DNA of 64,000 bases, taken from NCBI GenBank assembly GCA_964641225.1, contig CAZXKC010000001.1, positions 131,602-195,601 of the forward strand, read 5' to 3'. The DNA is from an uncultured Candidatus Saccharibacteria bacterium (GTDB lineage Bacteria; Patescibacteriota; Minisyncoccia; UBA6257; 1-14-0-10-44-23). Below, in pieces: positions 54,604 through 64,000 of the stretch; position 1 is the stretch's first letter; each line of letters starts with the position of its first letter. Made by a program: the position numbers and the translations under genes. The notes beneath the pieces are model-generated. The model was not told the origin of the DNA, did not search any database, and was given only the letters and a program-made list of their open reading frames with translations.

Positions 54604-55434
54604 TTATTTTGCTAGTGATTTTTTTGCCAAGAACGTTACGCCGGCACTTGCCGCTGCTGCACTGAGCGCGAGCAGAATGATATTGGCTACAGCCGCACCT
54701 CCTGCGCCTGTGTTAGGTAGGCCTGGAGTCACCACGCTGTAGTTATACGACGCTCCTGTTGGTGCAGAGGCTGAGTAAAAGCCAGTGCCCGGATCATAGT
54801 ACAAGCCTGTTGAAGGATTGTAGTAGGTTCCAAACGCCGAGCTCGAATAGCCCGCAGGAATGTTGTATCCGCCGCTGGAGTTAAACGAGGCCGGTCCGGT
54901 CGGTGCTGTCGTTGAATACTGTCCGGTCATCGGGTTGTAGTACAATCCATTCGAGTTATTGTAGTATATCCCGTTTGAATTATACGAACTGTATCCGCCC
55001 GGAATAGTGTAGGTTGTTCCATTTGCCGCTGTGTATGAGGTTGATGGATACGTTGGTCCGGATGGCGCCGTTGTTGAATAAAATCCGGTAACCGGATCAT
55101 AATATTGTCCGGTTGAAGAATTGTAATACGTTCCATACGACGAATTAGTAAATCCGGCCGGGACCGTATAGGTTCCATCTGGATTTCGTGTCGCAGGTCC
55201 TGTCGGGGCTGTCGAAGAATACTGTCCCGTTGTTGGGTTATAATACTGTCCAGCCGAAGAGTTATAATATGTTCCATTGGCATACGGCTGATAGCCCGCC
55301 GGCACAGAATACATTGTTCCGTTTGGGCCCGTATAAGTAGATTGAGCAGATGCTATTCCGCTACCAGCTAAAAGTGCAGCGCTTGTCGCTACGAGGGCGA
55401 TAGCTGCTGCTTTAGACATTTTTTGTAGTTTCAT
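54604..55434 (-). CDS. LPXTG-type cell-wall anchored surface protein with Y/N/G/T-rich repeats
   Basis: signal peptide; C-terminal LPNTGAGG plus hydrophobic stretch plus KKSLAK sorting signal. Confidence 0.7.
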   Translation of the reverse strand: MKLQKMSKAAAIALVATSAALLAGSGIASAQSTYTGPNGTMYSVPAGYQPYANGTYYNSSAGQYYNPTTGQYSSTAPTGPATRNPDGTYTVPAGFTNSSYGTYYNSSTGQYYDPVTGFYSTTAPSGPTYPSTSYTAANGTTYTIPGGYSSYNSNGIYYNNSNGLYYNPMTGQYSTTAPTGPASFNSSGGYNIPAGYSSSAFGTYYNPSTGLYYDPGTGFYSASAPTGASYNYSVVTPGLPNTGAGGAAVANIILLALSAAAASAGVTFLAKKSLAK

Positions 55435-55561
55435 TGTAGTAGTGATGTGTGTAGAGGTTAGTTGATAAATGTGTGTGTCGACCACCACATAGATTGAGAC
55501 GGCGTCAATAACTCTTTCTTAAAGAAGAGTTGAATTAGCTTTTATAGCAGAAGTTCGTAGC

Positions 55562-60389: not shown

Positions 60390-61238
60390 ATGCAGGAGCT
60401 GAATGTCACGGCAGTGGTTCCGGACGTTGCGACGTTCGCCAAGGAACGTTGGGGCATCTCGATTCTCGATTGCGCGACCGAGCGGGAGCTGCGCGACCGA
60501 GTGTTCGAGAACGTTTTCCTCAAGACGACCAGCAAGGACTTCGTCGAGCGCATGATGGCTCTGGATGTCCTGTTCGGGATGAATCCAACCTTCCTGCAGT
60601 CTGACGAGGCGCGCGTGTGTCGTGAGTTCTGTCTCAAGGAGTTCGCGCCGAGCGTCGATGACTTCTGGGAGATCGTCAGGGCGCAGCCGTTCAAGCGCTT
60701 CTCGACGCTCCAGGCCTTCTGGCGACAGAAGGATCTGGACGAGAACGACCGCTACCGGAAGGAGCAGCAGGAGGCGCACGAGCGCTATCTCGCAGAACAG
60801 GAGCAGCGACGTCTGGACAATCAGCGCGAGAAGGCCAAGCGAGAGCACGAGGAGCGTCTCAAGCGCATGACCTCGTTCTCGAATCTGGAGAGCTTCCTGG
60901 CGGTCCAGAAGATCGTCCGCAAGACGGGGGAGTCGAATGTCAACCTGCGACAGCGGGCCTTCGTCGAACTCTTCCTGCGCAGCAACCGGATGGCCGAGGA
61001 GGTGCGTTTCGTCGCGCGGGCCGAGGCGATGGAGGTGCTGATCGGATTCCGTCCCAAGTACCTGCGCATCGATGACCTGCGATGGGCGGAGCGGTTCTGT
61101 GATCGGAACATGCTCCAGTCCAAGGACAGTCTCGAGGAGTTCGCATCCACCTGGCAGGAGCGTATGCCTTCAGCGGTCGATCTGCTCAAGCGGCTCGGCC
61201 TGAGTGCGAAGGTCATCGGAGAGGCTGTCGCGGCGTAG
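60390..61238 (+). CDS. hypothetical protein (282 aa) with central charged coiled-coil-like region, GC-rich cassette I
   Basis: RBS GGGAGG; leader contains hairpin plus T8 run (60311-60345); terminator 61261-61305. Confidence 0.5.
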   Translation: MQELNVTAVVPDVATFAKERWGISILDCATERELRDRVFENVFLKTTSKDFVERMMALDVLFGMNPTFLQSDEARVCREFCLKEFAPSVDDFWEIVRAQPFKRFSTLQAFWRQKDLDENDRYRKEQQEAHERYLAEQEQRRLDNQREKAKREHEERLKRMTSFSNLESFLAVQKIVRKTGESNVNLRQRAFVELFLRSNRMAEEVRFVARAEAMEVLIGFRPKYLRIDDLRWAERFCDRNMLQSKDSLEEFASTWQERMPSAVDLLKRLGLSAKVIGEAVAA

Positions 61239-62633: not shown

Positions 62634-62662
62634 TTGACAAAATACGACATCGGGTGTATAAT
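62634..62662 (+). promoter_or_regulatory. promoter TTGACA-N17-TATAAT for DGR target gene
   Basis: 62634-62639 and 62657-62662. Confidence 0.5.
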
Positions 62663-62695
62663 ATACATTAGGTCTTTGAAAGCAGAGTTGCTAGA

Positions 62696-62792
62696 TTAGC
62701 CGCACAAATTGGGTTGTTTTTAATCAAAAAATAGACCAATTTGTGCGGCTAAGAACTCACCGTGTGGTGAGAGCCGTGAGTTCTCTTTTTTC
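62696..62792 (+). promoter_or_regulatory. structured 5' leader: 17-bp perfect inverted repeat (ttagccgcacaaattgg / ccaatttgtgcggctaa) then terminator-like hairpin gaactcac/gtgagttc plus TCTTTTTTC
   Basis: read directly; sits between promoter and RBS GGAGGA. Confidence 0.5.
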
Positions 62793-62805
62793 GGAGGAAC
62801 AGCCC

Positions 62806-63462
62806 ATGACTCAGTCTGGGACAGTCCGTAAGATGACCGATGGTCAGCGCAGCGATCTGATCGCGACGATCACGGGAGTGATTCCCGCAGATCTCACGTT
62901 CGACGAGGCGCAGGCAATCATCGGCAGCAAGGGTCCGTTCGTGGCCGACATCCGTCAGGCGTTCGCCAAGCGGCGGATTCGGGCGCCGGGACACTTTCCG
63001 GTCTGGCGTACGATCCAGGTCGGTACCCATGGGAACTCGAAGGGTCTGCAGGAGGCCGTCGAACAGGGTGGCTGCCAGATCAGCAGCTGGGCGGCCGACA
63101 TGATGAAGCGACCCACCTTCACGCTCGCCAAGGAGCCCGGCACCGTCAATCTCGTCCGGGTCAAGGTTAGCGAGTTGGGGTTCATGAAGAACACGCCCCT
63201 TTCGCAGATTCGTGATCGGGGTGTGGAACTCGGTCTTGCACTCTGTGAACCTGAGGACGGGCCGCAGCTTCGTCTGCAGTATCCGGAGCAGCCGATGGGC
63301 GAGGCGGTCTGGATGGCCATGAACGCCATCGTGTGCTCGAACGGCAACCCGCACATCTTCTGCGTCTTTCACGGCGAGGACGGTCGGTACCTCCGCGTCT
63401 ACGTCGGCTATCCGGGCCGCCTCTGGGGTCCCGACGACGGGTTCGTCTTCCGCAAGAAGTAG
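62806..63462 (+). CDS. DGR target protein candidate (218 aa) with C-terminal variable region; GC-rich cassette J
   Basis: ATG after RBS GGAGGAACAGCCC; last ~40 codons form VR matching TR with adenine-specific mismatches. Confidence 0.6.
   Translation: MTQSGTVRKMTDGQRSDLIATITGVIPADLTFDEAQAIIGSKGPFVADIRQAFAKRRIRAPGHFPVWRTIQVGTHGNSKGLQEAVEQGGCQISSWAADMMKRPTFTLAKEPGTVNLVRVKVSELGFMKNTPLSQIRDRGVELGLALCEPEDGPQLRLQYPEQPMGEAVWMAMNAIVCSNGNPHIFCVFHGEDGRYLRVYVGYPGRLWGPDDGFVFRKK
63336..63455 (+). repeat. DGR variable repeat (VR)
   Basis: 120 nt aligning to 63808-63927; all 23 mismatches fall at TR adenines. Confidence 0.7.
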
Positions 63463-63488
63463 TCTCTCGGTTCCTCGTGCACCTGGTT

Positions 63489-63512
63489 GTCCGGAAGTCT
63501 GGATATCCGGAC
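63489..63512 (+). promoter_or_regulatory. GC-rich hairpin downstream of VR (gtccgga...tccggac), candidate DGR homing hairpin
   Basis: 7-bp stem, 10-nt loop, 30 nt after VR end. Confidence 0.4.
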
Positions 63513-63530
63513 ACTTGGTTCCTCGTTTTT

Positions 63531-63572
63531 CCCGCCCCCACAGTTTCGACTGTGCGGGGCGGTTCGTTTTTT
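63531..63572 (+). terminator. intrinsic terminator after target gene
   Basis: ccgccccacag/ctgtgcggggcgg stem plus TTCGTTTTTTG. Confidence 0.6.
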
Positions 63573-63807
63573 GTATACTTACAATGGCAGTAGGCGGGCG
63601 CAGATGGTTACGGCTTTCTGCGGCTGAACCCAGGTTTCATCTGACCCAGAACGTTTCCGGCTACGGCTCTAAACGGAGCGGCGCATGAGCTTTAAAAAAT
63701 AATACTACTTGGTATGAGGAGTTAAGCGAGTGTGGCTCGCAGATACGATACAGCTCGAAGAATATTCAACGGGCAGTGGCATTGATGGCTCTTCATACAT
63801 TCGTGGA

Positions 63808-63927
63808 CTCGAACGGCAACCCGAACATCTTCTACGTCAATCACGACGAGAACGGTCGGTACCTCAACGACAACATCGACAATCCGGACAACCTCTGGAA
63901 TCCCGACAACGAGTTCGTCTTCCGCAA
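63808..63927 (+). repeat. DGR template repeat (TR); the 63776..63988 track ORF is the TR read-through, not a protein gene
   Basis: AAC (Asn) codon-rich copy of VR; followed by hairpin ctctcctg/caggagag plus TTTTGTT (63940-63972). Confidence 0.7.
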
Positions 63928-64000
63928 CTGGTTCTATTTCTCTCCTGTCGTCTTAGGCAGGAGAGTTTTGTTCCATGCTTTTACGTAGCCACCCGCCGAG

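Follow-up and report, generated by a model that had tools for sequence, protein, structure and literature searches.

A chromosomal diversity-generating retroelement of a Patescibacteria lineage whose own avd and reverse transcriptase genes are probably reduced to remnants

Introduction

The experimentally studied prototype of the diversity-generating retroelements (DGRs) is that of Bordetella phage BPP-1, a cassette ordered mtd-avd-TR-brt in which sequence passes from a template repeat (TR) to a variable repeat (VR) in an adenine-specific manner. Here we describe a DGR cassette at the end of a 64,000-nucleotide (nt) stretch of DNA from an uncultured Candidatus Saccharibacteria bacterium (GenBank assembly GCA_964641225.1, contig CAZXKC010000001.1, positions 131,602 to 195,601; the whole stretch is called the window below). 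The cassette probably represents a genuine chromosomal DGR whose avd and reverse transcriptase (RT) genes were cut down to their 3' parts, leaving the VR as a frozen snapshot. All position numbers are window coordinates, and L and P numbers denote retrieved loci and proteins.

Like BPP-1, the window combines adenine-specific transfer from TR to VR with an avd accessory gene, here probably a relic, and with a VR in the C-terminal part of its target protein, which in BPP-1 has a C-type lectin (CLec) fold and in the window is weakly predicted to have one. It differs from BPP-1 in gene order and in the orientation of avd, it is cellular and not phage-borne, and its target gene lacks a recognisable receptor-binding context. 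Moreover, BPP-1 is not known to need more than a short RNA segment upstream of its TR, whereas the window carries a ~220-nt RNA of eight helices in this place. Treponema denticola TvpA and other variable proteins with a CLec fold of the formylglycine-generating enzyme (FGE) type have no detectable sequence similarity to the window's target, which is also much smaller and has no obvious signal peptide by eye.

The closest described systems are the DGRs of the candidate phyla radiation (CPR), 90% of which have architecture B3 (Wu et al. 2018, PMC5758913), and DGR clade 2, which is restricted to Patescibacteria (Roux et al. 2021, PMC8144416). The window shares with them the chromosomal setting, the gene order, an avd on the opposite strand, a small unannotated target with a C-terminal VR and a TR rich in AAC and AAT codons. 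The cassette is a typical CPR-type DGR; such DGRs are abundant, much is on record about their C-lectin targets, and truncation of cassettes is common. The difference lies in avd and RT, which past the window appear to be C-terminal remnants, and with them the cassette would fail the surveys' criteria for 'putatively functional' elements. More than half of the candidate DGRs of Wu et al. 2018 (PMC5758913) were truncated or inactivated and were discarded for truncations, stops or poor TR-VR matches. Such inactivated DGRs show the same loss of RT sequence with persisting repeats, but the window differs from them in that its VR and TR match perfectly at non-A positions and its RNA is intact, so that inactivation looks very recent.

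An adenine-specific repeat pair at the 3' end of a small gene

A preliminary description of this DNA had reported 97 identities and 23 mismatches between 63336-63455 and 63808-63927. A base-by-base recount corrected these values to 100/120 identities and 20 mismatches, and the pair could be lengthened by one base (63335 G / 63807 A) to 121 nt with 21 mismatches. All 21 carry A in the downstream copy, the TR, and G (13 sites), T (five) or C (three) in the VR. The TR has 37 adenines, 21 of which differ in the VR, and 84 non-A positions, none of which does. The earlier claims that every mismatch is an A of the downstream copy, and that the pair is a DGR repeat pair with the VR at the 3' end of a gene, therefore held at base level (Table 1). 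The chance of 20 mismatches all falling on A positions is 2.5e-13, and the runner-up VR-like site in the window, from a scan of both strands with adenines as wildcards, had mismatches at 42 of the 84 non-A positions. The VR/TR observation is real and lies far beyond chance.

The homology had also been described as ending abruptly on both sides. This is accurate for the 3' boundary, where CGCAA is followed by GAAG in the VR and by CTGG in the TR, but only partly so for the 5' boundary, which is softer: a non-A mismatch at 63334/63806 is followed by five further matches (TCGTG). The Asn-rich character noted for the TR was confirmed by counting, as its variable codons include eight AAC and three AAT. 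In the VR frame, all 37 adenines fall on the first or second base of a codon and none on the third; the TR has a capacity of ~10^20.8 peptides, and a stop codon is impossible by any A substitution. Because the VR carries 21 adenine-site substitutions, the element has worked in the past.

The avd and RT genes past the window edge

Related cassettes provide the measure for what lies next to the TR. A scan of species-representative genomes yielded 27 loci, eight of which (L002, L003, L004, L009, L010, L011, L015 and L016) have adenine-only VR/TR pairs ~470-540 nt apart. Intact avd/RT is found in eight related genome loci, among them L012, whose repeat is fused, whereas L003 breaks off within avd. 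The Avd proteins of the related loci match bAvd and NF033474, and their RTs carry LGNLTSQ 32 residues ahead of YADD and match the RVT_1 profile at positions 8-203. The cassette-bearing loci are titled as metagenome-assembled genomes (MAGs) of Patescibacteria lineages, except L010, which is titled Gammaproteobacteria. The order target-VR, TR, avd(-), RT(+) occurs in L002, L004, L009, L010, L011, L015 and L016 as well as in 42 metagenome loci.

In the window itself, only the 3' end of avd is present, on the minus strand (Table 1), and its encoded tail resembles the Avd C-termini of related cassettes, for example MLGGWYGQILKQNSPA.... A tblastn search over the 64 kb found no RT homolog, in agreement with the preliminary description. 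We reached the sequence beyond the edge through Logan assemblies of two separate runs. A 67-residue spurious open reading frame (ORF) across the TR, used as a look-up, retrieved contig L029 (SRR14271332; 1444 nt), which is 100% identical to 62914-64000 (1087 nt, VR included) and extends 357 nt beyond. A search with the RT-like fragment of L029 found contig L030 (SRR14271336; 979 nt), along with P0141. L030 is 100% identical to 63955-64000 (46 nt) and reaches window-equivalent ~64933. The two contigs overlap by 403 nt across the avd/RT junction with zero mismatches, and together they cover ~930 nt past position 64000. Window and contigs joined follow the order target-VR, structured RNA, TR, avd(-), RT(+).

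We found that both genes in L029/L030 are remnants. For avd, ~60 C-terminal codons are left, which align only to ~58-121 and to positions 57-106 of the 107 of the bAvd profile, and an in-frame stop lies further upstream. Directly adjoining is the RT remnant, comprising the last ~110 codons; its alignment to intact relatives is confined to residues ~219-347, and that to RVT_1 to positions 148-203 of 205. RT motifs 1-4, including LGNLTSQ, are absent from this remnant, an in-frame stop precedes it, and it reads ILHADD where relatives have IRYADD. An scpA-like gene follows directly, at ~64507. Compared with intact cassettes, ~0.9 kb is missing: the start of avd, the intergenic region from which the two genes diverge and the first ~218 RT codons. 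With this deletion, the locus would be unable to make its own enzyme. The earlier expectation that RT and Avd lie just past 64000 was therefore right about the place, with the Avd tail at 63953-64000 and RT sequence beyond it, and wrong about an intact RT with [ILV]GxxxSQ and YxDD motifs, since the remnant lacks LGNLTSQ and reads HADD. Taken together, a loss of RT and Avd from this locus is very probable. Two further searches gave nothing: an exact search of JGI metagenomes with the 42-nt window end had no match, and a chimeric Avd query, in which the N-terminal part of a relative was followed by the 15 C-terminal residues from the window, failed to place the window Avd among its best 120 matches.

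As a separate observation, the RT remnants of L139 and L158 also start beside YADD, and L156 has a frameshift just past YADD. We do not claim a recurrent RT breakpoint beside YADD for these loci and the window: several short RT C-terminal proteins are contig-end cuts or frameshifts, and the pattern is confounded by how the loci were found.

A conserved structured RNA around the template repeat

The interval of ~350 nt between VR and TR is not a mere spacer. In an alignment of the window with nine related cassettes (A3), with the structure taken from RNAalifold, it folds into eight helices. In this 5' RNA domain, 94.3% of the cells are paired and 44/56 pairs show compensatory changes, as compared with 39-45% and 11-16 pairs in slid controls, and the observed values were reached by 0/500 shuffles. 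The window copy keeps 53/56 pairs, is as well formed as the others and deviates at only one column that is invariant in the other cassettes; the RNA scaffolds of the cassettes have a mean column identity of 63%. No family in Rfam 15 matched the ~220-nt domain. Among 120 metagenome loci (L035-L154), gathered by an 18-nt motif scan and tested with nhmmer, 89 contain the domain, and 42 of these show the full layout ncRNA-TR-avd(-)-RT(+).

Two further elements bracket the TR. A conserved single-stranded segment inside the 5' domain, AAAAAUGAAG, pairs with CUUCAUUU directly 3' of the TR in a long-range duplex, for which 93.8% of the cells are paired over nine cassettes and 4/9 pairs are compensatory (slid controls ~50%); the window copy is mismatched at 2/9 pairs. 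The stem-loop that follows is kept in nine cassettes, with a covarying inner stem, and overlaps the avd stop codon on the opposite strand. The preliminary description had noted a hairpin and U-run past the TR. The hairpin is real (z = -5.2); it is not simply a terminator, being a conserved stem-loop in the Avd-binding position. Handa et al. reported a 'cPRT Stop' duplex and an 'Avd-binding stem-loop' in 207/278 DGRs, CPR ones included. The window's long-range duplex has the position of the former and its post-TR stem-loop that of the latter.

By analogy with described DGRs, a TR RNA would be transcribed from a promoter just past the target terminator and would comprise the ~220-nt structured 5' domain, the 121-nt TR, the bracketing duplex and the 3' stem-loop. 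An RT-Avd complex would bind this RNA and make complementary DNA (cDNA) of the TR, misincorporating opposite adenines, and the cDNA would replace the VR, which supplies the last 41 codons of the small, C-type-lectin-like target. Up to 24 codons could be re-randomised per replacement, never yielding a stop. The ~0.9-kb deletion would later have removed the start of avd, the avd-RT intergenic region and the first part of RT, so that the present VR would be a snapshot from the time when the cis enzyme was lost. We also considered that the ~220-nt domain may be an undescribed, clade-specific RNA scaffold of Patescibacteria DGRs, needed for the RT-Avd ribonucleoprotein, and the cassette a satellite module serviced in trans; as a whole, we regard this proposal as tentative and rather doubtful.

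Decay or continued use of the cassette

We favor, as the probable reading, a genuine chromosomal CPR-type DGR whose cis avd and RT were reduced to remnants, probably recently, and whose VR is now frozen. An intact RNA domain and the lack of non-A drift between VR and TR make a recent enzyme loss probable. A dozen or so cassettes from metagenomes likewise lack RT and Avd or have remnants only. The five RT-less cassettes with a recognisable VR/TR pair have 2, 0, 2, 3 and 4 non-A mismatches (mean 2.2), more than the other 47 cassettes (mean 0.38; Mann-Whitney p = 0.001). RT-less cassettes of this clade thus generally drift and are therefore marked as relics, and this excess weakens the idea that such cassettes are generally maintained in trans. 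Some points weigh against our reading. We deduce the truncation from two short read-set assemblies, which agree fully with the window in the parts that they share with it, and not from the window's own contig. HADD may be a junction artefact and not a substitution, as the same bases can be read on the other strand as avd remnant. Finally, 0/84 non-A drift and 53/56 RNA pairs would also fit an element still in use.

An element still in use could be a non-autonomous cassette whose intact RNA is used by the RT-Avd of another DGR in the genome, with the VR diversified in trans, a situation that we consider unlikely. The lack of non-A mismatches in the window agrees with it, and the RT-less locus L090 likewise has none, but RT-less cassettes as a group have significantly more of them than RT-bearing ones, which points to decay. 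The window's RNA domain is paired as well as in intact cassettes, with its single deviant column, and the scaffolds are alike between cassettes (63% mean column identity), both in favor of this reading; the long-range duplex, on the other hand, has the two mismatched pairs mentioned above. A foreign enzyme is conceivable, given that several cassettes per genome occur in the clade: L009 has two intact cassettes side by side, and L045:4035-8138 has two in tandem, the first with a truncated RT beside an intact one. In the Bordetella system, plasmid-borne avd, TR and brt function in trans (cited in Wu et al. 2018, PMC5758913). In the 64-kb window, however, there is no second RT. Moreover, the VR is spanned by a single read-set contig, L029, which does not differ from the window in this part; its unbroken assembly through the VR weakly suggests that the VR is clonal.

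It is less probable still that the cassette is intact in its source genome and that the avd/RT junction is a deletion variant or an artefact of short Logan contigs. The junction is known only from L029 and L030, two short contigs of 1444 and 979 nt, and repeats can be collapsed in de Bruijn assembly. However, the same junction occurs in two runs, which agree perfectly over more than 200 nt to either side of it, and an artefact would require a direct repeat of at least 30 nt, where contigs normally break. The in-frame stop upstream in the avd remnant also speaks for a true deletion. In addition, the 64-residue RT fragment, used as a query, matched no full-length RT of the NCBI genome, although the database contains that genome's target protein. 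An ordinary duplication of the gene's 3' end, diverged by chance or under another mutational bias, has nothing in its favor beyond the existence of a direct repeat and is effectively refuted by the placement of 21/21 mismatches on A of one copy (P ~ 2.5e-13) with no adenine at codon position 3, by the Avd C-terminus in the window and the RT remnant just past its edge, and by the identical layout of dozens of cassettes with intact RT and Avd.

A DGR whose cis enzyme was lost recently, as we favor, adds little on its own, and its importance is modest and threefold. First, even a faultless VR/TR pair is no proof that an element works, so that the RT must be inspected. Second, a DGR caught just after enzyme loss would offer a natural 'frozen' variant of an unannotated family of small CLec proteins. 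Third, the strongly covarying RNA domain, for which there is no Rfam family, is the most useful by-product and could help define RT-Avd recognition in CPR.

Target protein, leader and flanking elements

The features of the cassette are collected in Table 1.

Table 1. Coordinates of features in and around the DGR cassette (window positions; MFE, minimum free energy)
Feature	Position	Strand	Details
Target gene promoter (TTGACA, 17-nt spacer, TATAAT)	62634..62662	+	sigma-70 consensus scan 12/12
Structured 5' leader of target	62665..62805	+	MFE -56.4 kcal/mol, z = -6.1
Leader long hairpin (16-bp)	62697-62751	+	kept in L031 (L031:185-387)
Leader terminator-like stem with U-run	62752-62760/62776-62784	+	mutually exclusive with small hairpin; not conserved in L031
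Leader small hairpin CUCACC-GUGU-GGUGAG	62756-62771	+	compensatory change CCCACC/GGUGGG in L031
Target ribosome-binding site GGAGGAA	62793-62799	+	
DGR target gene, 218 aa	62806..63462	+	residues ~1-60, predicted N-terminal three-helix module; ~65-218, likely C-type-lectin-like domain
Variable repeat (VR)	63335..63455	+	target codons 177-217 of 218-codon gene; 21/121 mismatches to TR
Post-VR region, hairpin with direct repeat GGTTCCTCG on both sides	63469..63525	+	repeat at 63469-63477 and 63517-63525
Intrinsic terminator of target	63532..63573	+	13-bp GC-rich stem, then T-run; -15.4 kcal/mol, z = -6.3
-10-like box, then ~220-nt 8-helix 5' domain of TR-containing RNA	63574..63806	+	box 63574-63579; domain ~63585-63806
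Long-range duplex bracketing TR, 5' strand	63697..63705	+	pairs with 63931-63939
Template repeat (TR)	63807..63927	+	37 adenines, 24 variable codons
Long-range duplex bracketing TR, 3' strand	63931..63939	+	
Post-TR stem-loop CTCTCCTG...CAGGAGAG, then UUUU	63940..63969	+	stem-loop 63940-63965; DNA fold z = -5.2
avd gene 3' end, last 15 codons LGGWLRKSMEQNSPA and TAA	63953..64000	-	continues past window; codons at 64000-63956

The target's family is modular and consists of small proteins. The target had no match in Pfam or NCBIfam, Foldseek gave no significant match, and exact-protein look-ups with the target (218 aa) and with its DUF4015 neighbor gave none either. The preliminary description had likened its C-terminus to CLec/FGE-type variable domains. 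A CLec-like fold is likely, with modest support from a weak fold prediction; the FGE part of the suggestion found no backing, as there was no match to Pfam FGE-sulfatase and none from Foldseek.

The elaborate structured leader claimed for the target gene was borne out by its fold (z = -6.1) and is placed behind a promoter that fits the sigma-70 consensus at 12/12. In the closest homologous locus, L031, the TTGACA box of this promoter is kept. The small leader hairpin competes with the terminator-like stem and with pairing to the ribosome-binding site. As judged from sequence and from the conservation of two hairpins in the closest homolog, the leader may be an attenuator or a translational control element. 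Rfam matches to the leader were dismissed, as they were sub-threshold and of miRNA-type hairpins only.

Downstream of the VR, the GC hairpin previously placed at 63489-63512 was confirmed with slightly wider limits (63488-63513); its stem has 8 bp and its loop 10 nt, and its DNA fold (-9.5 kcal/mol, z = -1.6) is unexceptional and not significant alone. By analogy with the target-site hairpin of BPP-1, it may help homing. Short degenerate repeats (CTTAG, CTTTG, CTTGG, CTCGG; period ~8 nt) crowd 63456-63530, many with stops in all frames, and similar ones lie 60-100 nt past the target stop in L002, L003, L004, L009, L010, L011, L016 and L031.

Related loci and neighboring genes

Most family members come without a cassette: no TR, avd or RT was found within 10 kb for L001, L005-L008, L013, L014, L017-L027, L031 and L032. 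These DGR-free members, which include Acidobacteriota, Nitrospiraceae and Proteobacteria MAGs, would be orphan or former targets, or paralogues that are not diversified. Two cassette-bearing loci show rearrangements of their own. In L012:4180-4400 (a WWE3 MAG), the 3' end of the target is a VR/TR hybrid, and directly downstream come the post-TR stem-loop, avd and RT, the latter intact; here the RNA domain was apparently lost through recombination between VR and TR, which would be another way for DGRs to decay. In L004:10475-11573, a 481-nt unit (a TR-like copy, the target's 3' flank and the RNA domain) is tandemly duplicated, giving the order VR, TR-like copy with a VR-type flank, TR; the duplication may be real, or it may have arisen in the assembly.

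The neighbors of the cassette in the window are housekeeping genes: dnaX, a DUF4015 hydrolase and tRNA-Gln. The latter was the sole Rfam match in the window, with nothing credible in the DGR region. An ORF of 282 residues at 60390-61238 was considered as part of the cassette and rejected, since it matched no family and is not linked with the cassette where related loci are concerned. GC content is 62.6% in the target gene and 61% in this ORF, as compared with 48% in the window and 41% in the avd/RT remnants; the high values suggest foreign origin or unusual constraints for the two genes. Finally, an ORF on the minus strand at 54604-55488 encodes a repetitive protein rich in Tyr, Asn and Gly, with a sortase-type anchor (LPNTG) and a hydrophobic tail at its end. 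From its sequence it appears to be a Gram-positive-style surface protein, which we take as consistent with a Patescibacteria host.

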